64,000 nt of DNA, taken from contig CBDDIJ010000003.1 of NCBI GenBank assembly GCA_965228855.1, positions 832,001 to 896,000 on the forward strand, read 5' to 3'. This stretch comes from Candidatus Obscuribacterales bacterium. GTDB lineage: Bacteria; Cyanobacteriota; Vampirovibrionia; Obscuribacterales; Obscuribacteraceae. Shown here piece by piece: positions 39,776-53,515 of this stretch. The position numbers and the translations under genes are program-made. Under the pieces are notes generated by a model. That model worked only from the letters and a program-made list of their open reading frames with translations, searched no databases and was not told the origin of the DNA. Position 1 is the stretch's first letter; every line of letters starts with the position of its first letter.

Positions 39776-41503
39776 ATGTCGAACCTCTGCTGGTTGGTGT
39801 TTTCGCAGATTAATATGTTGCAGTCTTCTAAAGCTTATACGCGTAGCAACTATCAACAGTCCGATCGGGTCGACTCTTCAAAACGGTCGGACCTGAAGCT
39901 CATGAGTTTGATTGTTGCCGTTGGCTGTTTGATGTTTTTACCGGGGCTGGGCGCGACCGGGATTTTGAACACCACCGATGCTTACTATGCGGAAGCTGCG
40001 CGGGAGATGTTGAATCGTGGCGATTTCATCACGCCCTATTTAAACTACCAGCCGTATTATTTCAAACCGATTTTGACCTACTGGGTGATAATCGCATCCT
40101 ACCTCACGTTTGGCATAAACACCTTCGCTTCGCGTCTGCCATCGGCCCTCTCCTGCATTGCAACCTCGCTTGCAATTTTCTCTCTGACCAAAGCTTTCAT
40201 TGGACGCAGAGCCGCTTTGATGGCAGCTCTTGCTCTGCTGTCTATGCCCTTAGTATCCGTGGTTGGTCATGTTTCAATTCCGGATACACCGCTACTTCTT
40301 CTCACGACGGTTTCCAGCTTGCTCTTGCTCGGCGCCCTCATACGTGGCGACAGCAAGGGTTTGATTCCAGCTTACGCATGCCTGGGTCTGGCAATGTTGA
40401 GCAAAGGACCGCTGGCGCTCGCGTTTGTTGGTGCGTGCGTGGGCGGCTTTCTCCTCGTAAGCAGCCGGTCCCTCGATCATTTTAAGCAGAGACTTCTGTC
40501 TCTTAAACCGATTCTCGCCGTTGCGGTATCGCTTCTGGTGGCACTTCCCTGGTTTGCCGCCGTGCATTTGTCATCTAACGGAGCTTTCACGCAATTCTTT
40601 TTCATTCAGCAAAACTTTGGGCGACTGTCCGGGCAGTTTCAATCGCACAATAATCCGGCATGGTTTTACATTCCCTATCTGGCTGGTGGCTTTCTGCCAT
40701 GGCTTCCAATGCTGCTCAGTGCGCCAGTAATTCTCCGCCCTCGATTCGAGAAGCGTCTGTCGGACAGCCCGCGAGTACAAATGACCGTAGCGTCGCTGTG
40801 CTGGTTGTTTGGAACGCTCGGGTTATTGCTTGTCTCGTCCTCGAAAGTCGCCCACTATTTGCTTCCAATCGCCTCTCCAATCGCAATTTTGAGCGGATTG
40901 TATTTTGACGCTGTTCTAAAACTCGGCCGACGCCGATTTGTTCTGTGGGTGGCACCGGTTATGGTGCTTGCTTGTGTCGGTAGCCTTTTCGCGTTCCCTC
41001 GCCTATTTGAAAACGAGGGGCAGTTGCAAACCCTCGCTTCAGTTTTTGTTTCTCTGCTCATAGTCGGCTACACCGCATATGGTGCGTTTATCTACAAATC
41101 TCAAATGCGGCTTGGCGTGGCTCTTTTGTTTGCCTGGAGTTTGCTCGACTGTGGATTGTTGGTGCCGGTTGCGATTCAGCAGACCTACCGCCGTGCTAAC
41201 GAAGAGTTTGTTTCTCTCGTAAAGCAAGCCAGTAAGGACAAGAATTCAGTAATTGCCGTTCGCGCGAATGACAGCGCTACCGCCGCTTTCTATGCGGGCA
41301 AGAAGATTTACGAGATTGAAGGACCGTTAGATTGCAAGAAAATTGTGGACACCACCCAGGGACCGCACTACTTTATTTTTGATGATAAGACGAATTCTCT
41401 TTTGCATCCATTTATCCCGGGGTCTCCTCGTGTAATCAGTACGGATGGTAAATGGAACTTGATCCTCGTTGAAAACGACTCAGCATCAACTTCTTCAAAC
41501 TGA
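39776..41503 (+). CDS. ArnT/GT39 (PMT-like) glycosyltransferase; start may lie downstream
   Basis: DAYYAEAAREMLNRGDFITPYLN...KPILTYW, RLPSAL, LSKGP, LPWF, PAWFYIP, HYLLP. Confidence 0.88.
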   Translation: MSNLCWLVFSQINMLQSSKAYTRSNYQQSDRVDSSKRSDLKLMSLIVAVGCLMFLPGLGATGILNTTDAYYAEAAREMLNRGDFITPYLNYQPYYFKPILTYWVIIASYLTFGINTFASRLPSALSCIATSLAIFSLTKAFIGRRAALMAALALLSMPLVSVVGHVSIPDTPLLLLTTVSSLLLLGALIRGDSKGLIPAYACLGLAMLSKGPLALAFVGACVGGFLLVSSRSLDHFKQRLLSLKPILAVAVSLLVALPWFAAVHLSSNGAFTQFFFIQQNFGRLSGQFQSHNNPAWFYIPYLAGGFLPWLPMLLSAPVILRPRFEKRLSDSPRVQMTVASLCWLFGTLGLLLVSSSKVAHYLLPIASPIAILSGLYFDAVLKLGRRRFVLWVAPVMVLACVGSLFAFPRLFENEGQLQTLASVFVSLLIVGYTAYGAFIYKSQMRLGVALLFAWSLLDCGLLVPVAIQQTYRRANEEFVSLVKQASKDKNSVIAVRANDSATAAFYAGKKIYEIEGPLDCKKIVDTTQGPHYFIFDDKTNSLLHPFIPGSPRVISTDGKWNLILVENDSASTSSN

Positions 41504-41540: not shown

Positions 41541-41569
41541 TTGACAAAGGCGAGTTTCGCTCAGATACT
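41541..41569 (+). promoter_or_regulatory. Sigma70-type promoter of the serS leader
   Basis: TTGACA (41541-46), 17-bp spacer, GATACT (41564-69); predicted +1 at 41576. Confidence 0.75.
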
Positions 41570-41575
41570 GAGAAT

Positions 41576-41620
41576 ATGAACAAAGCAGCACATCGCAACT
41601 CGTCTTCCTCGTCCCCATAG
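41576..41620 (+). CDS. Ser-rich attenuator leader peptide MNKAAHRNSSSSSP
   Basis: ATG AAC AAA GCA GCA CAT CGC AAC TCG TCT TCC TCG TCC CCA TAG directly upstream of serS. Confidence 0.8.
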   Translation: MNKAAHRNSSSSSP

Positions 41621-41623
41621 GAC

Positions 41624-41669
41624 GCGGGAGTTTGTTCATCTAATTGTGTTATTGAACAAAGAAGCCCGC
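41624..41669 (+). promoter_or_regulatory. Antiterminator hairpin of the serS attenuator
   Basis: GCGGG(41624-28)/CCCGC(41665-69) plus TTTGTTCA(41631-38)/TGAACAAA(41653-60); overlaps the terminator 5' arm. Confidence 0.75.
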
Positions 41670-41692
41670 TTTAACCGAAAGCGAGGCTTTTT
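41662..41692 (+). terminator. Attenuator terminator upstream of serS
   Basis: AAGCC-CGCTTT / loop AACCG / AAAGCG-(A)-GGCTT, T-run 41688-41692. Confidence 0.75.
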
Positions 41693-41726
41693 GCATTGTA
41701 GTGCCTCGCGTATCATTGGAGGTACT

Positions 41727-42989
41727 ATGATTGATTTGGAAGAAGTAAAACGACAGCAAGCTAATTATCGAAAGGCGATTCTCAGCAAGCGAATTCCGCT
41801 CGATTTCGACACTCTTTTGCGGGTCGCAGAGGAGCGGAGGACCGCTCGCCGAGTCGTCGATGATCTCAGGCGGGAACGCAACAAGATCACTGCTCTGGTG
41901 GCAGCTGGAACTGCGCGCGCAGAGAACATCGAGAAAGGTCGTGCTGTCGGTGAAAAGCTAAAGGCGGAGGAAGCGCAACTGTTTGAATTGGAAAAAAGCT
42001 ATCGCAAATTAGCGGCGCTCTTGCCTGGAATTCCGGCTCCGGAGGTTCCAGAGGGTGAAACAGATGCGGATAACGTAGAAGTCAGAAAGCACGGAATACC
42101 AAGAGTCTTTGATTTCGAGTTTCGAGATCATCTGGAGCTGACCGCGTTGCATAAGATGGCAAACTTCGGTGGTGCCAGAGAAATTGCGGGTTCAAGAGCG
42201 TATGCGCTGATGGGAATTGGAGCGTTGCTTGAAAATGCCGTTCTGCAGTTTGCTCTGACCCACATTGTGAAGAAGGGCTTCACTGCGGTTCTTCCGCCGT
42301 TGTTGGTGAACGAAACCGCAATGTTCGGTACAGGATATTTTCCTCTCGGAGAGGACAGTGCCTATCATCTCGAAAAGGACAATCTATTTTTGACCGGCAC
42401 CTCAGAGGTCGGCGCTGTCGCGATACATGCGAATGAAACCGTCAATCAAGTCGATTTTCCACTGAGGTATGTTGGAATTTCGCCGTGTTTTCGCCGCGAG
42501 GCAGGTGCAGCAGGACGAGACACCAAGGGCTTTTATAGAGTGCATCAGTTTCAAAAAGTGGAGCAGGTTGTCTTTTGTTCAAATGATCCTGAAGTATCAC
42601 GTGTGGAGCATGATGCGCTTCTGCAAAACGCCGAGGAGATTGTGCAAGCTCTTGAGCTTCCCTATCGCGTGGTGGCAGTTTGCACAGGTGACATGGGGCT
42701 TGGTCAAGTGCGCAAGCATGACATCGAAACATGGATGCCCAGCCGAAATAGCTACGGCGAAACGCATTCATGTTCAACCTTCCATGACTTTCAGGCTCGT
42801 CGTTTGAACATTCACTATCGCGATGCCGATGGTAAGAAACACTTCGTGCATACGTTGAACAATACCGCTATCGCCTCACCTCGGATTTTGATAGCTCTCC
42901 TTGAGAATCATCAAAACAAAGATGGGACCATCAATGTGCCGAAAGCGCTCCGACCATATCTGGGTGGGACGGAATTGATGGAGCCCTAG
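41727..42989 (+). CDS. serS: Serine--tRNA ligase
   Basis: N-terminal coiled coil; LTGTSEV, CFRREAGAAGRDTKGFYRVHQFQKVEQ, YGETHSCS, HTLNNTAIASPR; GGAGG RBS before ATG 41727. Confidence 0.97.
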   Translation: MIDLEEVKRQQANYRKAILSKRIPLDFDTLLRVAEERRTARRVVDDLRRERNKITALVAAGTARAENIEKGRAVGEKLKAEEAQLFELEKSYRKLAALLPGIPAPEVPEGETDADNVEVRKHGIPRVFDFEFRDHLELTALHKMANFGGAREIAGSRAYALMGIGALLENAVLQFALTHIVKKGFTAVLPPLLVNETAMFGTGYFPLGEDSAYHLEKDNLFLTGTSEVGAVAIHANETVNQVDFPLRYVGISPCFRREAGAAGRDTKGFYRVHQFQKVEQVVFCSNDPEVSRVEHDALLQNAEEIVQALELPYRVVAVCTGDMGLGQVRKHDIETWMPSRNSYGETHSCSTFHDFQARRLNIHYRDADGKKHFVHTLNNTAIASPRILIALLENHQNKDGTINVPKALRPYLGGTELMEP

Positions 42990-43649: not shown

Positions 43650-44398
43650 GGTGGTGCCTGCTGATTTGATTTGCGTTTGGGACATTATATAAGTGTGCGC
43701 TGAAAGAGAATGTTTGATGTTCGTGCTCGTGAATGTTTTCTTCCTCATATATAGCCATGTCTCGGTGCCATGTTCCGACGAGCCGCCTGACCACGCATCG
43801 CCGAGAGCTGATATATAAGGAACACACTTGGCGTGTCGCTAGTAAGTTTTCTGAGCGTAAGTCTATTTCATTGAATGAACGCTGAAGGATGTGACCAGAT
43901 GTGCACCTTCGCGATCGGCGTGTGATCGGAACAAAAAACAAGCCTGGTAATGAAAAATGACATTCCTATTCGCCGATCGAGTAATTGCGTTAGAACGCTG
44001 GAAATTCCCAGTGGGTAAGGCTTTTGCCGCGCTTGTTGGATTCTCGCGCAATTAATATTGCTTGCTGGGATCCTTCAGAATCCGAGTACTTTAGAGGTCA
44101 AGATATATGCTGTTGCCAATTGTAAACGAGAAATTTTTCAGAACCAATTTTGATAAATCCAACAAGGGCTCAGAACAAATAGACGAAAGTTTTTTTGAAA
44201 AGGCAATTTGAATCCTTCGCTTGACGACCGGTGGTAGGAAACGGTTTAACAGCGTGTTATGTTTTGCAGCGAATTAGACGGCGGTATTCTCGAGATTCCG
44301 CCGCCCAAAAACCTTTTGATTAGCTCCCGGCGACGGGAGCCTGATTTGTATTGGCGTACTAGTCGCCGAAATCGAAGTGACACCTTAGAGGATTGAAA

Positions 44399-47300
44399 AT
44401 GAGTAAGAAAGTGGTGCGAAGTCGGGAATCCTACATCAAAAACTGGACCGCAGCTATCTGGGGATCGGTGATGGTCGTAGCGTCTGGAGCCGCAGCTCAA
44501 GCCGAAGACCATCAAAACTTCAGAGATTTCCGCGATGCGAATCCCGGTTTCGATCGTCATACGCTTCGTCAGATGTATCGCGCTGAGTTTGGTCGTGGTG
44601 GCGCAGGTGGTGCTTCAAACGTTCCTGACGCCGGCACCTTTAACATCATGCCGGTACCGAATGTACCTTCGACCAGTAACGTCACAATCACAGAGTCGCG
44701 CGGCAAGTGGGCTAACCGTCTCGAACGCAATAATGGCGTCATAAAGCAATCCGTTCAATCTAATGACAGCGGCAAGCTGGTGACACTGAATGGCGGCGTC
44801 AATCTCGACCTCACGTCACAAGCACGCAATATCACCCTCGGACAGAAGCTGTTCAGTGGTGTTTCATCAATTGAAATTCAAGTTGGCGGCGAAACCAAAA
44901 CTCTCACTGCTGGTTCACAAGTCACGGCAGCCGAGTATATCGCTGCAAAACAAGTTCTCGCAGGAACCGCTCAGAAAGTTGCAATCAGCTCTAACGGCGT
45001 TGCGACTGGCGGTGAAGTCGACCTTTCCGCTATCACCTCTCGCGGCGACGTGATGAGAGCATCCGACCTCGTCGTTCCGGTCAATGTCACCACACTCGGT
45101 GACTTCTCAAAAGGTTCCGAATTCAAACTTCAAGGTGACTTGAATAACTTTGGTACCGTTCATGCTCTGGACGGTTCCGGTAATGGACGCGGTGGCACGA
45201 TTAGAGCCGTTGATATCAACAACAATGCAAACGCTTTGATCTCATCCGACGTTGATCTCACGCTACGCGCAGACGGCCAGCTCACCAACCTCGGCAACAT
45301 TACTTCGAATGGCAGTTTGACGTTGACTTCTAGCAACGTCACTAACCGCGGCAGCATATCCTCCGCTAAAGACGTCAATTTGAATTCGCCGACCGGCGCT
45401 ATGAATGTTGACAGCGCAGGTGGCACTATCTCCGCTGCCAACAATATTAATGTCGATGTGAACGCTGACTCGACATTGGCAGGCGGTAACTACCTCAGCC
45501 AAAACCTGAACCTGAATGCTGGTGCTGGAACAATCACCGCCAATCTGGACAATGTGACCGGCACAGTCAATGGCACAGGATATGCGGTTCACTTCGCATC
45601 GCAATCCGAGACTTTGAACCTGGGCGACCTGAACTTGATCGATCCCACGTTCTACAACATTGGAAATATCAATTTCACCGGTGACGTGATAGTCGCTGGA
45701 AACGCGTTGACTATCATCGCGACCGGCAACATCACCGAGTCTGTGGTGGGACCGTTTACAGTGAGCACCGCCAATGGAGCCGGCAATGGTGGCGACCTCA
45801 CAATGATCGCTGGTGCGAATATCACAGCTGCGGGTGGTCCGGGTAACAACACCGTAGGAGCAGGTGCTCCTACACAAGTCACCTTCAATGAAGGTTCCAT
45901 CGGCGGAGGAAGCATCCTTCTTAACGAAGTCCAACTCAACACGACAGGTGCTGGCGGTGGTAATGGCGGAAACGTCCTCCTCGCTGCGTTTGCTGGCACC
46001 ACAGGTGGTTCCGGAAGAGTTGATCTCGGTGTCGGAGTTTCCACTATTCAAACTTCTGGAGACGCCGGTGTCGGTACAAACGGTAACGTAACAGTCATTG
46101 CATCGAGAGGCATAAATCTTGGCGGTGCGGGTAGTTCAATAAATGCTGACGGCGGACTTGCTGGAGCAGGAACGGGCGAAGTCCGAATCACTTCCGCTCA
46201 GCCTGTGACGGGTGGACCTGTCACGTATGCTGCTGACGGAAGTCTTGTGTCCGGTCAGGTCACAGCTGGAACAACCTTGACCAATTTCACTGTGAACGTA
46301 CCCAGCATTACGGCCAGTGGAATTGTCAGAGTGGCTTCCGGCGGCGACGTCAATGTATCTGACATCACTACAAGCGGACCTCTCGCTAACGTTGTGCTCT
46401 TGTCAGGTGTCGACCAGTTTACGCTTGCGCCTACAAACCCCTCGGCGAACCTGACCATAAACGGAGATGTAACCGCGAATGGTGCTGGTAGCCAAATCCT
46501 TGCTGCTTCCGGAAACAACCTCAGCACCGTCGATGGTGCTGACTTAGTTGCTGATGGCAATATCGGTTTCGTCGTTGGCGGCAATTTCAGCCAACTCGGA
46601 GCGATATTTGCTCAAAACGGCGCCGTCAATGGAACCGTTGATGGTGACTACACACTCGGCACTGACCTGCTTGATTTTGTCGCTGGAGCGTCCGGCGTGA
46701 CGGTCGCCGTGAACGGCGACTTGATTCAATCCGCAGTCATCGAGGCTGGTGCTGGGGCTAGCCTGGACGGTAGCGTCAACCTTCTGATCGGTGGAGACTA
46801 CACTGCGACGTCGGCAGCTGCCAGCGTGCTGGCTGGACAAGGTGATCCCGGTTATGTCGGCACTGTGACAATTTCCGCTCAGAATTTCTCAACGGCATCA
46901 GGCTCGACCATCAGAGGTCGTAACGTCACGCTGACTTCGGATAGCACCAATTTCGGTTCTTTCAATCTCAACGGTCTGGTCGACGCTAATGGAACCGGTG
47001 CGCAAGGCGTATTGACCTTGACGCAAAACGGTACTGTTCAAACGGACATGACTGATACGAACTTCTCGGGTGGTTTGCAGTCACGCCAACTGACGATCAG
47101 CAACAACACTGGTGGCAACATTCAGTTCCTCAACAACACGGCTACTTCATTCGACTTCAACAACGTCACGGCTAATGCTGGTGGCGACATCACGTTCATT
47201 GAAACCACGCTCGATGGTGATGGAAGTATCAACTTCACAGGTTCCAGCTTCGCTGGTGGTTCGTTTACCGCACTTGTCGATACTGACCTTTCAACCGATA

Positions 47301-50300
47301 TCGCTTCGATAGTTGGCGGTTCCTCGGGTGAACTCAGAAGCAGCAACGGTAACATCGGTTCGACCGGCAACTTCTTCGAGACAGATTTCGGAAGTATCAT
47401 CGTACAAGCACTGGGCGGACCATCGCCGACTGCGGGCAACGCTTACATAGGCGGCGCGAACGGTTTGAACTTCGCCGGCGGCAATTCGCAAATTACGGCT
47501 GATCTAGCCGCAGTTGCGCTCACCGGGGATATCACAACGGACGCGACTTCGACTGTCAGCGTCGGTGGAGCTGCTGATTTGGCAGCTCAAGTCGGTAACA
47601 TCGGTACTGGATTGCTGAACCCATTCCGTATCGACGTCGGTACCGGAGTTGGACAAGGCGTTCTTGCAAATGCATCGGGCGATGTGTTCCTCTATGACGC
47701 CAACGGCGCTGCTATTGCAAATGGAAGCGCTGCAACTTCGACAGCAGGAGGAACCTTCAGCTTCGTAGTCGATGGTGACCTCGCTGTCAGGAACAACGTG
47801 TCTGCTTCCACTGGTGACTTGATTCTTCAAGCAAATGCTGGTGGTGACTTGACGCTAGACCCAACAGTTCAAGTCAGCGCCGCAGGTGACGTAAACCTCG
47901 CTGGAACAAACATCTCTGGTGGCATCGATACTCTGGTCTCAGGTAACAACCTCACGGTTGAGCTCTCCGGACTGGGCAACATCTACACCAATGTGAATTC
48001 GATAAGCACCGATATTGGTGCAGGTGATTTGACCATCAATGAATATGATGGCATCACGATCGGCTCCCAATCGGTCGGCGACCTGACCGTCAATGCATCG
48101 CTTGTCTTTGGTGGAGATGTTGATACCACTGCTGACTTCACGATGGATACATTCACCGTCACCAATGACGGTGGTTACATCAACATCAACAACCAGATCA
48201 CTGCTAACACTGCTGCTTTGCTCGATACGACCGGTGGTACCGGCGGAATCGGAGGGCTGGGCACACTGTCAACTCCTCTGGCTGGTTTGTTTAGCGACAG
48301 CGGCGATATCGTTCTTACGGTCAACGGCGTCGCAGGTGGCGACACGACAGTCACAGCGCAAGCTGGCGCCGGCGGAAATGTCGACCTGACCTACGTAGGC
48401 AGCGGTACTCTGACCCTCGATGGCAGCTCCGGTAACGGTGATTACTTCGTCGCTACCACGGATGGTGCCGCTTCTGTCGAAATCTTCGATAATATCGACG
48501 GAACGGGTGTGTTGGACATCACGACTAACACACTGGCGTTCGTCAACCCTGTCACTCTCGCTTTCGACAGCGCTAGCGTTCAAAGCTTGGCTGGCAGCGG
48601 TCTAACGCTTGACGGTGGCGATGCCATCAACGGTGGTAACTTCGTGACTACCGTAGGCGGCGCTGGCGTGAGCTTCACGGCTACCGACGGCGACTTCACT
48701 GTTTTGAACAAAACCAACTTCGTTGGTGGCGATGTTTTCGTGACCCTCGCAAACAACAACGGAATCAACGCAGTTGACCTCACCGCCATGGGTGCGAACC
48801 TGAACGGTGATGCTCAGCTGTTCCCACCGGGTAACGACATCACAATTAGAGCCGCCAACATTCAAGGGAATATCGGTACTGCGATTACGAACTTCAACCA
48901 AGTAACTGTTTTGGGTAACACAATCCACAACAGCAATGGCGACGTTCTTCTGCCCACCAACCTGGTATTCTTTGGACAGAACCTCTCGATTATCGCCTCC
49001 GGCAATGTAACCGCCACTGGTGCCACATTGATTGATCTGTCATCCAACGTCGGCAACGGCGGAAGTTTGATTATCCTGGCCGGTTTCGCAAATACTCCCC
49101 CGACTGTTGGCGCCGAGAACACTGCTAACCCTGTGGTAATCACAGGATTCAGCGGAACTGGCGGTAGCGTAGATCTGACCGGGGTCAACATCATCACCAG
49201 CGCGACAGGTGTCTCCGGTGACGCCGGCGACGTGACCATCATCGCTGCAGGTGGCAGCACCCTCGGCAGTGGAGCCGTGACGGCCGGGAACATTACTGCA
49301 ACGTCAGTAAATGGTTTCGGCGGAATGGTTTCGCTTGCTGGTTCTGCTGGTGTCACCGTAGGTGATATCACCACTACTGGTGGAGTCGCTGGCGGTGACG
49401 TACTTCTAGGAGTCGGAACGGTCGCGATCATCGGAACTCCAACCATCACCAATGGTGTACTGAGCGGAGGCGGTTTCATCCCTGATGCACTCGCACCGGG
49501 CAACCTGACATATGGAGCTATCAACGCCGGCAATGGCGACGTCGCTCTGGCGGGCGCACTCACTGCTGGCGATACCGTGAGTGGTGGATTCATTCAAGCG
49601 GATAATCTTGAAGTGGCCATGGGCGACGGAACGGTTTCGCTGAATGTTGACGCTAACGAAGTTCAGGCCGATGCCACAGCTGGCGTAGGCGGCGGAACGT
49701 TGACGGTGAACGAAGCCGGCAGCATTAACGTCGATCACATCGATGGAAATCTGGATGTAAACATCAATGCCTTTGCGACCATCAACATCATTGGCAGCAT
49801 CAACGCTGGAACCGGTGCTGTTGAACTTGGCGCTCAGGACATCACCACGAATGCTTCCAAAGTCATCGCTGATAGTCTCGATCTCAATGTACTGAACAAT
49901 GCAACGGTCAACACCAGCGTGAACACGCTGACCACGACCACTGGCACTGGTTTCAGCATTGTGAACGAAGACAATGGTATCGACCTCGGTTCGCAGGCAT
50001 CCGGCGCATCGCTGGTCGTGAATGCGAGCCAAGTTGCCTCCGGTGATGTGACCACATCAGCTGATTTCGTCCTTGACTCCCTCACCGTCAGTAACGCTGG
50101 TGGTGATATCGTCATAAGCAATGACATCACCGGCACGAACGGTGTCGCACTCGACACCACTGGTGGACCTGGTGCCATCACTGGGTTGGGATCTGTTTCT
50201 TCGCCGATCATCGGACTCAATTCCGGAGCGGGCGGCATCGACCTGTCAGTCAATGGACTGCTGGATGGGGACACGAGCCTCAACGCTGCAGCTACCGGCG

Positions 50301-53300
50301 GTAACGTCAATGTCGACTATGTCGGTACCGGAGTTCTGACGCTTTCGAATAACAGCACCGGCAACGTTGATTACAACGTCTCCGCTCTTGGTGGCAGCAT
50401 CGTGATTCGTGGAGACATCGATGGAACCGGTGATGCCACTTTGACCAGTGACGATATCTCGTTCTCAGATATCAGTGCCTACTCACTGACCTTCAACGAG
50501 ATCACTCTCAACAGCGTAACTGACCTGACTGTGAGCGGCGGTGTCAATGGTGGTACGTTCAATTCGACCGTGGCCACGAACTTCAACGCCACCAATGGCG
50601 ACCTCACCACCAACGACCAATTGAACTTCAATGGTGGCGATGTCTTCGCGACATTGCTGGTCAATAACGGAAGCAATGCGTTCGTGAACAACGGAATCCT
50701 TAATGGAGATGGCGCATTTGATGGAGACCCAACGGCAAACTCGTTGACCATCACAGCTGCTCTCATCACCCCAGGAACGATTCAGAACTTCAACAATGTG
50801 TTCTTCCTCCAAGGAAACACGATCATCAACACCACCGGTGATGTAGTTCTCCCGACCAACCTGGTGTTCCAAGGTCAAGATCTCGCGATTATCGCCTCTG
50901 GCAATATCACCGCGACCGGAGCAGTATTGATCGACCTGTCTTCTACAACTGGAGACGGTGGCGATTTGCTGGTCCTGGCTGGTTATGATGCTACCGGCGT
51001 CACTGGCGGTCAGCAACAGACCCAAGACCCGGTCACCGTGACCGGCGTCAGCACGACCGGCGGAAGTGTTGACTTCACGGGAGTCAACATCATCACGAGC
51101 AGTTCGTTCGCAGGCGGCAGCGCCGGCAGTGTAACCATCATTGCAGGAAGCACCACTGGTGCTACCAACGCAGGCGATGTGACAGTCGGCAACATCACGG
51201 CTGAAGGTGACTTGAACGGTGGACTGGTAGTCGTCGGTGCATTCGGCAACGCATCTGTCGGAAACATCAGCACGATTGGAACGAACGGTCAGGGTGGATC
51301 CGTTGTTCTCGGCAGCGGTACGGCAACATTGGTCGGACCTGTAGTCGTGACAAATGGCAGTCTTACGACTGGCAGCTTCGTTCCTGGAGTGCTCTCCGGT
51401 GGTGATGTCGCTTACGGTACGATCAATGCAGGAACCGGCGACGTCGACCTGGCAGGCGCTCTGGATGCCGGCAACAGCATCGCAGGCGGTGCAATCACAG
51501 CCGACAGAATCGGTTTCGTGATCGGATCCGGAACGGCTTCAGCAACCGGCAACTTCAACAGAGTAACTGTTGATGCCACCACCTCAGCTGGTGGCAGCGT
51601 GACGGTCACTGAGAACGACGACATCATCCTGGATGACGTCTCCGGTACTCAAGTCAACGTCACGGTTAATGCGTCCGGCGATGTCTCCGTTGATGGAGAT
51701 GTGAGCTTCGGTACTGGAACACTCAACGTGAGTGCCGCCAATATCGTTCAAGGTATCGGCGGATCGGTCACAGGTTCCAACCTGAGCCTCACTGCAGTTA
51801 ACGATGCTACGTTGACAACGAATGTCACAACCCTGCTGAATAGCTCAGCTGACAATCTGACGCTATTCAATACCGGTAACTTGACGGTTAATGATTTGAC
51901 CATCGGCACGGATCTCAACCTCACCAACACAGGAACGCTTACCTTCAATGGTACGACTACCGCTGTTGATGTGAATGTCACCAACACTGGTGCACTGACG
52001 ATCGGTGATATCACGGCTACGGGTGCGATAAATGTCGACAACACCGGCGACGCCACTGTTGCTGGTGCGCTATCCGGAGCAACTGGTCTCTCCATCGATG
52101 CGTCGGGAACGTTGGCTGTGAATGCGGCTGTTTCCTCTACCCTGGATGTGAACCTGCTGGCTGATGGCAACGTCACGGTCGGAGCCGATGCCACCTCTCT
52201 AGATGGTGACCTCAACATCGTCTCCCAAGCTGGCTCTATCACCACTGCAGATGACGTCACGCTCCAGGGCAATGATTCGATTCTCATTCAGACGGTCGGT
52301 GGCGGCACAATCACGATTGGTGCAACGAACAACATCTTCACCGATGCGGCAGTGAAATCTCCCGGAATCGGAAACGTCACCATTCTGCAAGGTGCAACTC
52401 TTCCAGCTAAGACCAAAAACCTCAAAGGTAGGAACATCATCGCCATCACTCAAGATGACGGAACTGTCCTCACCGGCAGAGGTAAAGGGACCAAGAAAGT
52501 TGTGTTCAATTCCCCAGACAATACATTGTCCGGAATCGGCGCTCAACTCTTGATCGTCGCATCGGCAAAGAATGGTGTCATCATCGGCGGTGGTGCCACG
52601 ATTACAGCTGACCCACCGGTTGCAGCAGGTTCGGCTATCACAGTATCGACCTGGGGCAAGGCGGATGCAGCTCAACAAGCGGCTCCTACCACTTCAACCG
52701 AACTGCCCGCATCGCTGGCAAGCATCACCGCACCAGCAACGGTATCATCGGTCAATATGGTGACTGCAACCAACGCGACCACAACGACTGGCAAAGATGC
52801 TCTCAAGGGCACGCTTTCCAATCTGGCTTCAGCCAACAACCTCAGCATCTTCGCAGCGCAGGAAGATGACTCGACCATCACCGGTTATGCGCCGGTCGGT
52901 CAAGTGGTTGACGGTAAGGTCTGCAGCGATATCGAATTCGGTTTCGCTACAGGTGCGGCCGGTAACGGTGTTTCGACAATCAAACACAGCGACATCGTCA
53001 CTCTCGACAATGGCACCGCTCTGTTCGTACCGTCGAAGGACATGATGGTCGTAACGCCGAAGGGCAAAGTCAAACTTGGCGCTAACTCGGTAGCTGTGGT
53101 CAGCATCGACGGTAATCAACTCTCGGTGTACGACATCAACGACAACCACAAAGGCAGCGTAGTAGTTGCCGCCGGCGGTCGCGAATTGTCGCTCTCACCA
53201 GGACGTCACCTGATCGTCACCAACGATCGCGCAGCATCCTTCGCGGAAGCTAACCCGATCGAATCGATCATGCACCGCGCAGTCAGCCGTCATGAACTCG

Positions 53301-53515
53301 GCAACGGACATAGAGCATTCACCACAGAATTCTCGATTCCGTCGGCAGTTCAAACGGTCAAACCGCTCGGCGCAATGATGCATTCTAACCACGCAGCAGC
53401 CAAGAAAGTTGCTCAGAATGTCATCAAGACTTCTGCCGTTATGATGCACATCGGTGGTGCGGCTCCTTACGAGTTCCACACCAAACCGAGAACAGTTGCA
53501 ATGAACATGAACTAA
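44399..53515 (+). CDS. Giant secreted beta-helix surface protein/adhesin (about 3040 aa)
   Basis: Signal ending AQA; long G/N/T/V/D-rich repeats; internal ~633-aa duplication; distinct C-terminal globular domain; AGAGGA RBS before ATG 44399. Confidence 0.8.
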   Translation: MSKKVVRSRESYIKNWTAAIWGSVMVVASGAAAQAEDHQNFRDFRDANPGFDRHTLRQMYRAEFGRGGAGGASNVPDAGTFNIMPVPNVPSTSNVTITESRGKWANRLERNNGVIKQSVQSNDSGKLVTLNGGVNLDLTSQARNITLGQKLFSGVSSIEIQVGGETKTLTAGSQVTAAEYIAAKQVLAGTAQKVAISSNGVATGGEVDLSAITSRGDVMRASDLVVPVNVTTLGDFSKGSEFKLQGDLNNFGTVHALDGSGNGRGGTIRAVDINNNANALISSDVDLTLRADGQLTNLGNITSNGSLTLTSSNVTNRGSISSAKDVNLNSPTGAMNVDSAGGTISAANNINVDVNADSTLAGGNYLSQNLNLNAGAGTITANLDNVTGTVNGTGYAVHFASQSETLNLGDLNLIDPTFYNIGNINFTGDVIVAGNALTIIATGNITESVVGPFTVSTANGAGNGGDLTMIAGANITAAGGPGNNTVGAGAPTQVTFNEGSIGGGSILLNEVQLNTTGAGGGNGGNVLLAAFAGTTGGSGRVDLGVGVSTIQTSGDAGVGTNGNVTVIASRGINLGGAGSSINADGGLAGAGTGEVRITSAQPVTGGPVTYAADGSLVSGQVTAGTTLTNFTVNVPSITASGIVRVASGGDVNVSDITTSGPLANVVLLSGVDQFTLAPTNPSANLTINGDVTANGAGSQILAASGNNLSTVDGADLVADGNIGFVVGGNFSQLGAIFAQNGAVNGTVDGDYTLGTDLLDFVAGASGVTVAVNGDLIQSAVIEAGAGASLDGSVNLLIGGDYTATSAAASVLAGQGDPGYVGTVTISAQNFSTASGSTIRGRNVTLTSDSTNFGSFNLNGLVDANGTGAQGVLTLTQNGTVQTDMTDTNFSGGLQSRQLTISNNTGGNIQFLNNTATSFDFNNVTANAGGDITFIETTLDGDGSINFTGSSFAGGSFTALVDTDLSTDIASIVGGSSGELRSSNGNIGSTGNFFETDFGSIIVQALGGPSPTAGNAYIGGANGLNFAGGNSQITADLAAVALTGDITTDATSTVSVGGAADLAAQVGNIGTGLLNPFRIDVGTGVGQGVLANASGDVFLYDANGAAIANGSAATSTAGGTFSFVVDGDLAVRNNVSASTGDLILQANAGGDLTLDPTVQVSAAGDVNLAGTNISGGIDTLVSGNNLTVELSGLGNIYTNVNSISTDIGAGDLTINEYDGITIGSQSVGDLTVNASLVFGGDVDTTADFTMDTFTVTNDGGYININNQITANTAALLDTTGGTGGIGGLGTLSTPLAGLFSDSGDIVLTVNGVAGGDTTVTAQAGAGGNVDLTYVGSGTLTLDGSSGNGDYFVATTDGAASVEIFDNIDGTGVLDITTNTLAFVNPVTLAFDSASVQSLAGSGLTLDGGDAINGGNFVTTVGGAGVSFTATDGDFTVLNKTNFVGGDVFVTLANNNGINAVDLTAMGANLNGDAQLFPPGNDITIRAANIQGNIGTAITNFNQVTVLGNTIHNSNGDVLLPTNLVFFGQNLSIIASGNVTATGATLIDLSSNVGNGGSLIILAGFANTPPTVGAENTANPVVITGFSGTGGSVDLTGVNIITSATGVSGDAGDVTIIAAGGSTLGSGAVTAGNITATSVNGFGGMVSLAGSAGVTVGDITTTGGVAGGDVLLGVGTVAIIGTPTITNGVLSGGGFIPDALAPGNLTYGAINAGNGDVALAGALTAGDTVSGGFIQADNLEVAMGDGTVSLNVDANEVQADATAGVGGGTLTVNEAGSINVDHIDGNLDVNINAFATINIIGSINAGTGAVELGAQDITTNASKVIADSLDLNVLNNATVNTSVNTLTTTTGTGFSIVNEDNGIDLGSQASGASLVVNASQVASGDVTTSADFVLDSLTVSNAGGDIVISNDITGTNGVALDTTGGPGAITGLGSVSSPIIGLNSGAGGIDLSVNGLLDGDTSLNAAATGGNVNVDYVGTGVLTLSNNSTGNVDYNVSALGGSIVIRGDIDGTGDATLTSDDISFSDISAYSLTFNEITLNSVTDLTVSGGVNGGTFNSTVATNFNATNGDLTTNDQLNFNGGDVFATLLVNNGSNAFVNNGILNGDGAFDGDPTANSLTITAALITPGTIQNFNNVFFLQGNTIINTTGDVVLPTNLVFQGQDLAIIASGNITATGAVLIDLSSTTGDGGDLLVLAGYDATGVTGGQQQTQDPVTVTGVSTTGGSVDFTGVNIITSSSFAGGSAGSVTIIAGSTTGATNAGDVTVGNITAEGDLNGGLVVVGAFGNASVGNISTIGTNGQGGSVVLGSGTATLVGPVVVTNGSLTTGSFVPGVLSGGDVAYGTINAGTGDVDLAGALDAGNSIAGGAITADRIGFVIGSGTASATGNFNRVTVDATTSAGGSVTVTENDDIILDDVSGTQVNVTVNASGDVSVDGDVSFGTGTLNVSAANIVQGIGGSVTGSNLSLTAVNDATLTTNVTTLLNSSADNLTLFNTGNLTVNDLTIGTDLNLTNTGTLTFNGTTTAVDVNVTNTGALTIGDITATGAINVDNTGDATVAGALSGATGLSIDASGTLAVNAAVSSTLDVNLLADGNVTVGADATSLDGDLNIVSQAGSITTADDVTLQGNDSILIQTVGGGTITIGATNNIFTDAAVKSPGIGNVTILQGATLPAKTKNLKGRNIIAITQDDGTVLTGRGKGTKKVVFNSPDNTLSGIGAQLLIVASAKNGVIIGGGATITADPPVAAGSAITVSTWGKADAAQQAAPTTSTELPASLASITAPATVSSVNMVTATNATTTTGKDALKGTLSNLASANNLSIFAAQEDDSTITGYAPVGQVVDGKVCSDIEFGFATGAAGNGVSTIKHSDIVTLDNGTALFVPSKDMMVVTPKGKVKLGANSVAVVSIDGNQLSVYDINDNHKGSVVVAAGGRELSLSPGRHLIVTNDRAASFAEANPIESIMHRAVSRHELGNGHRAFTTEFSIPSAVQTVKPLGAMMHSNHAAAKKVAQNVIKTSAVMMHIGGAAPYEFHTKPRTVAMNMN
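48030..51860 (+). repeat. Diverged tandem duplication, period about 1.9 kb, inside the giant gene (boundaries approximate)
   Basis: GNTIHNSNGDVLLPTNLVF at 48914 vs GNTIINTTGDVVLPTNLVF at 50813 (1899 nt apart); flanking blocks also colinear. Confidence 0.8.

Follow-up and report, generated by a model that had tools for sequence, protein, structure and literature searches.

The window analyzed here, a 64,000-nucleotide stretch from a Candidatus Obscuribacterales genome, carries a gene for a second seryl-tRNA synthetase, serS2 (41727..42989, + strand), and the leader features discussed below lie upstream of it on the same strand. A sigma-70-like promoter, TTGACA-17 nt-GATACT (41541..41569, 10/12 matches), has a -10 box that ends 6 nt before the ATG of a 14-codon upstream open reading frame (uORF; 41576..41620), which reads MNKAAHRNSSSSSP and then stops. 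Five consecutive Ser codons, TCG TCT TCC TCG TCC (41600..41614), are contained in this uORF, and positions 41604-41614 of the run double as RNA segment 1; the first-pass annotation had described this Ser run upstream of serS, and the sequence is as it said. In 44 of 46 related leaders the ATG follows a sigma-70-like -10 box at a distance of 6-7 nt; the uORF therefore looks leaderless, and transcription would start at or beside its ATG (41576). Among long genes of the source genome, leaderless starts are uncommon and form no clear peak. Scans of the window alone for promoters and terminators did not rise above chance, with 1 promoter found against 0.6 expected and 2 terminators against 0.7.

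The promoter lies 37 nt beyond the end of a gene for an ArnT-like membrane glycosyltransferase (39776-41503, + strand; its match is below the family cut-off). There is no terminator-like site on that strand between this gene and the promoter, and read-through could also feed the leader. Further downstream, a repetitive open reading frame of 3040 aa (44393-53515, + strand) is rich in Gly, Ala, Thr and Asn and may encode a secreted adhesin or surface protein.

A second seryl-tRNA synthetase and its leader among relatives

The first-pass annotation placed serS directly downstream of the leader. The gene does encode a seryl-tRNA synthetase (420 aa, catalytic motifs intact; TIGR00414 at 427 bits versus a cut-off of 302), but it is the second serS of the genome, and the other copy is only 38% identical to it. 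The best solved-structure match of the SerS2 protein is entry 1ser, which we take to be the Thermus thermophilus enzyme. Genes of the serS2 type occur in 47 of the 104 genomes of the family, at 48 loci with catalytic motifs present in nearly all copies, and 400 further genomes from the phylum gave none at E<=1e-105. A canonical serS was also seen in 45 of these 47 genomes, and completeness is 85% and 65% for the remaining two. We built a tree from 116 proteins by a quick method, omitting duplicates and a copy with a frameshift. In it the 47 full-length serS2 rows group on a single branch (SH-aLRT 97), separate from the canonical genes; the serS sequences of Peribacteria, Planctomycetota and Bacillota lie next to this branch. 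The gene serS2 may have been gained horizontally; we name no donor, since the outgroup rows were picked by likeness to the query. Protein identity among leader-bearing loci falls to about 50%, and the nearest neighbors of serS2 differ between genera (39 loci, some of them second records of the same genome), which points to leader and gene traveling as a unit. No location in a seryl-nucleoside biosynthetic cluster was seen among the neighbors of these 39 loci. One genome (G011) has two serS2 copies (L010 and L141), each with its own leader, and in another (G067) the serS2 copy (L143) has a frameshift near codon 125 and an intact leader.

A Ser-rich uORF precedes 46 of the 48 serS2 loci, in 20 genera, so the loss of the uORF or its Ser run among relatives that would have spoken against a sensor is not what we find. 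Within about 600 nt of repeat-rich upstream DNA, no Ser leader was present at the two other loci, G093 (L164) and G088 (L165), where a longer open reading frame and short tandem repeats occur instead. In their sister branch, G090 and G091, the leader is unusually long at about 295 nt. The Ser block begins at codon 9-11 in 42 of the 46 leaders and at codon 8-13 in all of them, and the run comprises at least four Ser codons in 38 and at least three in 43. It ends 5-25 nt before segment 2 in 45 of 46 (median 14.5 nt). Conservation is limited to the Ser codons, the place where they lie and the cores of the pairings, and the rest of the peptide varies. The genomes are related by descent, so leader counts such as these are not independent.

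TCN codons make up 215 of the 218 codons in the longest runs (TCA 87, TCG 59, TCT 40, TCC 29; the total includes four codons of two rejected candidates) and, counting one leader per genus, 85 of 87 Ser codons, versus 66.6% in the genome. In B. subtilis, TCN are described as the starvation-sensitive Ser codons (PMC3862929). The preference seen here is confounded, however, as the same codons are needed for pairing with segment 2. With default settings, ARAGORN reports tRNA-Ser with anticodons CGA, GGA and GCT in the source genome, whose assembly is 95% complete, and none with TGA, yet TCA is the commonest codon in the Ser leaders of the family.

The leader appears to be confined to serS2. No promoter-linked Ser uORF was found at 16 canonical serS loci or at 53 outgroup serS loci (3 of the 53 lacked usable upstream DNA), and the sole outgroup candidate, L093, was rejected as a Ser leader because it is a T-box. 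A profile built from the Ser leaders matches only the serS2 locus in the source genome. A pattern search of 401 genomes of the class matched 67; among the matches listed, those outside serS2 lacked, by eye, the -10 box or the frame and were taken as chance. One further Ser leader (G105) runs off the end of its contig.

Predicted competing folds of the leader RNA

The naked leader is predicted to fold into a hairpin of segments 1 and 2 (the Ser codons with 41620-30), a middle stem-loop, a terminator of segments 3 and 4, and a hairpin over the Shine-Dalgarno sequence, and the region 41576-41700 is more stable than all of its shuffles (z -4.7, 0/200). Segment 2 (41620..41630) has two possible partners, segment 1 and, by way of GCGGG (41624-41628), segment 3. 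The middle stem-loop (41631..41660, 41631-38 with 41653-60) is present in both states and brings segments 2 and 3 together; its sequence and length vary among relatives. In the predicted intrinsic terminator (41662..41692), a stem with a bulged A (41662-41689) leads into five T at 41688-92; the switch core CCCGC lies at 41665-41669 and the core of the 3' arm at 41681-41687. A terminator-like hairpin is found in all 46 leaders.

Several of the pairings first proposed for this locus are recovered by folding. Segment 2, drawn as 41624-38, pairs with segment 3 at 41653-69 (minimum free energy -22.6 kcal/mol for 41605-41670, z -3.8), the terminator hairpin and T-run at 41662-92 are predicted as described, and segment 2 can pair back onto the leader ORF through both CGTCC/GGACG and ATGAACAAA/TTTGTTCAT. 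The claim that 2:3 pairing competes with the terminator holds for one part of the duplex: GCGGG (41624-28) on CCCGC (41665-69) would exclude the terminator, but the TTTGTTCA/TGAACAAA stem forms in both states. The ATG region pairs with 41631-39 in the source leader, a pairing that is not general among leaders.

To represent a translating ribosome, bases up to 12 nt from the P site were held unpaired, and folding used a transcript that stops short of the terminator's 3' arm. Under these constraints the 5' arm of the terminator is paired upstream with a mean probability over the 46 leaders of 0.79 when the ribosome is stalled at the second Ser codon, 0.47 in the naked RNA, 0.39 with the ribosome four codons past the second Ser and 0.27 with it at the stop codon. 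Upstream pairing is higher stalled than at the stop in 42 of 46 leaders, and in these masked folds the switch runs as first proposed while the terminator is still incomplete. The 2:3 score of stalled leaders is 0.78 versus 0.54 for shuffles, and 41 of 44 leaders (two long ones left out) lie above the shuffle mean. Taken singly, only 20 of the 44 reach p<=0.1, and the leader in our window does not stand out from its own shuffles (0.58 versus 0.54, p 0.34). Covering of segment 2 had been tied to a ribosome that reaches the stop codon, and this part of the scheme does not carry over to most relatives. The stop precedes segment 2 in 14 of 46 leaders, but the uORF runs through segment 2 in the other 32, so that passing the Ser run, rather than reaching the stop, would be what matters.

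Equilibrium folds of the full leader present a different picture. Only 12 of 46 stalled folds bring the terminator below 0.5, and in the source window it stands at 0.98; masking there narrows the gap between states from 11 to 1.4-4.4 kcal/mol without reversing it. The terminator thus survives at equilibrium in most cases, and the model has to assume kinetic control, which is how classical attenuators work.

Comparisons between relatives bear on the individual pairings to different degrees. When each arm was offered partners from other genera, its own partner came out ahead for 3:4 in 42 of the 46 leaders, for 4:5 in 39 and for 5:6 in 35; for 1:2 it did so in 39 leaders and in 18 of 20 genera, and for 2:3, whose core hardly varies, in only 26. 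A complement to the 5' arm of the terminator is conserved 6-30 nt after the Ser run. The expectation of covarying stems was borne out as to pairing and not as to compensatory change: in a plain MAFFT alignment of 26 of the 46 leaders, with about seven rows out of register at the terminator 3' arm, 85% of cells pair (34-43% in slid controls), but two-sided changes occur in just 3 pairs (26/500 shuffles), and the mean covariation score of the shuffles is higher than that of the alignment.

The first-pass annotation missed a hairpin over the serS Shine-Dalgarno sequence (41700-41726). Inside it lie GGAGGT, the Shine-Dalgarno sequence of serS2 (41718..41723), and segment 5 (GCCTCGC, 41703..41709), which is an exact complement of the terminator 3' arm and also an anti-Shine-Dalgarno sequence. 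In 39 of the 46 leaders the 4:5 duplex scores better than its shuffled versions (p<=0.05). A bulged-A terminator and a downstream GCCTCG are found in 34 leaders each and together in 33 of the 46, a co-occurrence that could stem from shared ancestry; pairing of segment 5 with the 3' arm would explain why the terminator keeps a destabilizing bulge. In the source leader 4:5 and 5:6 are about equal in energy, and in folds with 2:3 held, 4:5 forms before the Shine-Dalgarno sequence is made. At equilibrium, a stalled ribosome raises access to the Shine-Dalgarno sequence by over 0.2 in just 8 of the 46 folds. We give an even chance to a second, translational tier of control, modeled on these folds, in which the freed 3' arm would draw segment 5 off the Shine-Dalgarno sequence, and transcripts that leak through the terminator would keep it hidden. 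The ability of segment 5 to pair with either the terminator arm or the Shine-Dalgarno sequence suggests one switch acting on transcription and translation together.

A putative serine-responsive switch and its alternatives

The Ser leader has counterparts in the same genome. A scan of the source genome for a promoter, ATG, short open reading frame and terminator in that order yielded 612 short open reading frames, 27 of them with a terminator-like hairpin. Three of the 27 combine a promoter score of at least 10 with an amino-acid run, and in each the run matches the next gene. In addition to the Ser leader, a Thr-rich leaderless-type uORF and a terminator precede a second, divergent thrS of 637 aa (thrS2; G000:C3:2639751, +, L144), and a Met-rich leaderless-type uORF with a strong terminator precedes the genes for cystathionine gamma-synthase (metB) and aspartokinase (G000:C2:1924127, -, L145). 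The Thr leader was present at 11 of 12 related thrS loci, the twelfth lying at a contig end, and the Met leader at 20 of the 20 best loci, some of which also have Thr codons. Both place the ATG behind the -10 box as the Ser leaders do and have clear predicted terminators. The Ser-leader profile touches the Thr leaders only at E 0.12-0.17, a level that does not show a common origin. No such leader was seen before the canonical serS, the canonical thrS or serA of the source genome; serA (L216, G000:C5:277547-279115, -) closely follows its upstream gene. Elsewhere in the genome (G000:C3:3285017, -), a promoter-linked short open reading frame ends in a Cys-rich run and is followed by a terminator-like hairpin, and no gene was found immediately behind it. 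The match between run and next gene for Ser, Thr and Met is the strongest argument for reading the runs as amino-acid sensors.

The analysis directly shows the uORF with its Ser run and a set of complementary segments, all of which are conserved and confined to serS2. From these and from the modeled folds we favor a model in which the conserved Ser-codon leader is, very probably, a ribosome-mediated transcription attenuator that would turn on the accessory serS2 when Ser-tRNA is scarce. A Ser-sensing attenuator had been the reading of the first-pass annotation, and it is supported by conservation at 46 of 48 loci, by the spacing of the Ser run and by the masked folds. We envision that a ribosome loads on the uORF without a Shine-Dalgarno sequence and follows RNA polymerase. 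With Ser-tRNA plentiful, it would move past the Ser codons and cover segment 2, the terminator would form, and an RNA of roughly 117 nt would be released near 41692. With no ribosome on the uORF, the 1:2 hairpin would hide segment 2 and termination would follow as well. When Ser-tRNA is scarce, a ribosome stalled on the UCN codons would leave segment 2 to pair with the 5' arm of the terminator before the 3' arm is made, and serS2 would be transcribed.

Three other accounts of the leader have to be weighed. In the one that survives best, the uORF senses Ser-tRNA and the output is mainly translational, with a weak terminator and a Shine-Dalgarno sequence opened through 2:3 and 4:5 pairing. The joint presence of a bulged-A terminator, weakened by its bulge, and GCCTCG in 33 of 46 leaders fits this account, as do the mere five U in the source window and the mycobacterial poly-Cys leaderless uORFs that are reported to act in this way (bioRxiv 10.1101/834739). 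However, all 46 leaders have a GC hairpin followed by a U-rich tail, including the 7 without a significant 4:5 duplex, and the sister Thr and Met leaders have clear terminators; we consider a mainly translational output improbable. Still less probable is that the uORF is no sensor, with TCN repeats kept only for RNA pairing and a switch worked in some other way, such as by binding of SerRS or tRNA, as in E. coli thrS autorepression or a T-box. Pairing of segment 1 with segment 2 does give the Ser codons a structural role, but the ATG, the promoter distance and the run's frame have all been conserved despite the variation in third positions counted above, and in each of three separate leaders the amino acid of the run corresponds to the gene that follows. 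Moreover, Rfam families including the T-box gave no match in the window (and nothing at L002, L144 or L145), in contrast to T-boxes at 6 of 7 outgroup Bacillota serS loci, which served as a positive control. The idea that a constitutive terminator silences an acquired gene, and that the locus mainly yields a small RNA or peptide, draws on equilibrium folds that favor the terminator in all states for most leaders and on the two genomes whose serS2 has no recognizable leader, but it can hardly be credited, as it leaves unexplained why a run of Ser codons precedes the gene for a Ser enzyme, why a complement is conserved after the run and why the remaining peptide is not conserved.

Likeness to known systems and possible biological meaning

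In its sequence-level features the serS2 leader is like the trp, his and pheM attenuators. It shares with the trp, his, thr, leu and pheM-pheST systems a short uORF of cognate codons and, as predicted, alternative 1:2, 2:3 and 3:4 pairings and an intrinsic terminator, and pheST, like serS2, encodes a synthetase (PMC1262725, PMC1183508). Unlike these classical attenuators, it would respond to serine, has a predicted leaderless start and an additional choice between 4:5 and 5:6 over the Shine-Dalgarno sequence, and belongs to the Vampirovibrionia. The leaders reported before alaS, thrS, trpS and leuS in Streptomyces (PMC8079986, PMC1262725) provide a closer parallel: alaL-alaS, thrL-thrS, trpL2-trpS and leuL2-leuS likewise place a cognate-rich uORF before an aminoacyl-tRNA synthetase, and thrL, trpL2 and leuL2 are described as leaderless (PMC8079986). 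They differ in that Table 4 of that report holds no Ser leader, several lack a U-tract terminator, and the phylum is another (PMC8079986). His leaders are also reported before hisS paralogues in bacilli (PMC2965389). With T-box control of Bacillota serS, the proposed switch shares the signal (uncharged tRNA-Ser), the target and the terminator output, but no T-box was matched here and sensing would be by the ribosome. The mycobacterial poly-Cys sORF attenuators are similar in their leaderless uORF, amino-acid run and control of a downstream Shine-Dalgarno sequence; there, by contrast, it is the codons of the run that pair with the Shine-Dalgarno region, and switching involves no terminator (bioRxiv 10.1101/834739). 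Searches of openly available full texts, largely outside the subscription literature to which the large comparative attenuation surveys belong, turned up neither a leader peptide for serine nor an attenuator of serS, and none of any kind from Vampirovibrionia; supplements to attenuator surveys such as PMC2965389 may contain serS leaders.

Auxiliary synthetases of other bacteria offer two further comparisons. An auxiliary, antibiotic-resistant TrpRS of Streptomyces is under ribosome-mediated attenuation, going by the title of Vecchione and Sello 2010 as cited in PMC4787780; as here, a second synthetase copy is placed under a cognate-codon attenuator, there with Trp and here with Ser. Albomycin producers have AbmK, a resistant and divergent second SerRS beside the housekeeping enzyme (PMC8323819, PMC9032320). 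The likeness of AbmK to SerS2 lies in this description, and AbmK sits in a biosynthetic cluster, whereas serS2 has no conserved neighbors. We tentatively raise the idea, itself rather unlikely, that Obscuribacterales keep horizontally gained serS2 and thrS2 as inducible, inhibitor-tolerant backups, with the Ser leader as a sensor of antibiotic as well as starvation and a cascade of 2:3 and then 4:5 pairing that opens both terminator and Shine-Dalgarno sequence. Blocking of the housekeeping SerRS would stall the ribosome and bring about this refolding. The absence of the leader from serA and the parallel with thrS2 fit the idea; serS2 as a starvation backup is the simpler reading.

In the source genome the canonical serS and thrS and serA lack these leaders, which instead mark the second serS and thrS. 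This pattern points to a reserve of charging capacity, and leaders on second synthetase genes raise the question of natural synthetase inhibitors. If the inhibitor-tolerant reading were true, the leader would be the first serine leader-peptide attenuator, in a family of leaderless attenuators of the phylum Cyanobacteriota, and a marker for resistant synthetases and for the inhibitors they answer. One comparative attenuation survey reportedly found no attenuators in Cyanobacteria. At about 150 nt, the Ser leader could also serve as a compact biosensor for Ser-tRNA, suited to a laboratory reporter. A serine-sensing leader would extend ribosome-mediated attenuation to serine and to the Vampirovibrionia, an uncultured lineage whose gene control has barely been studied.
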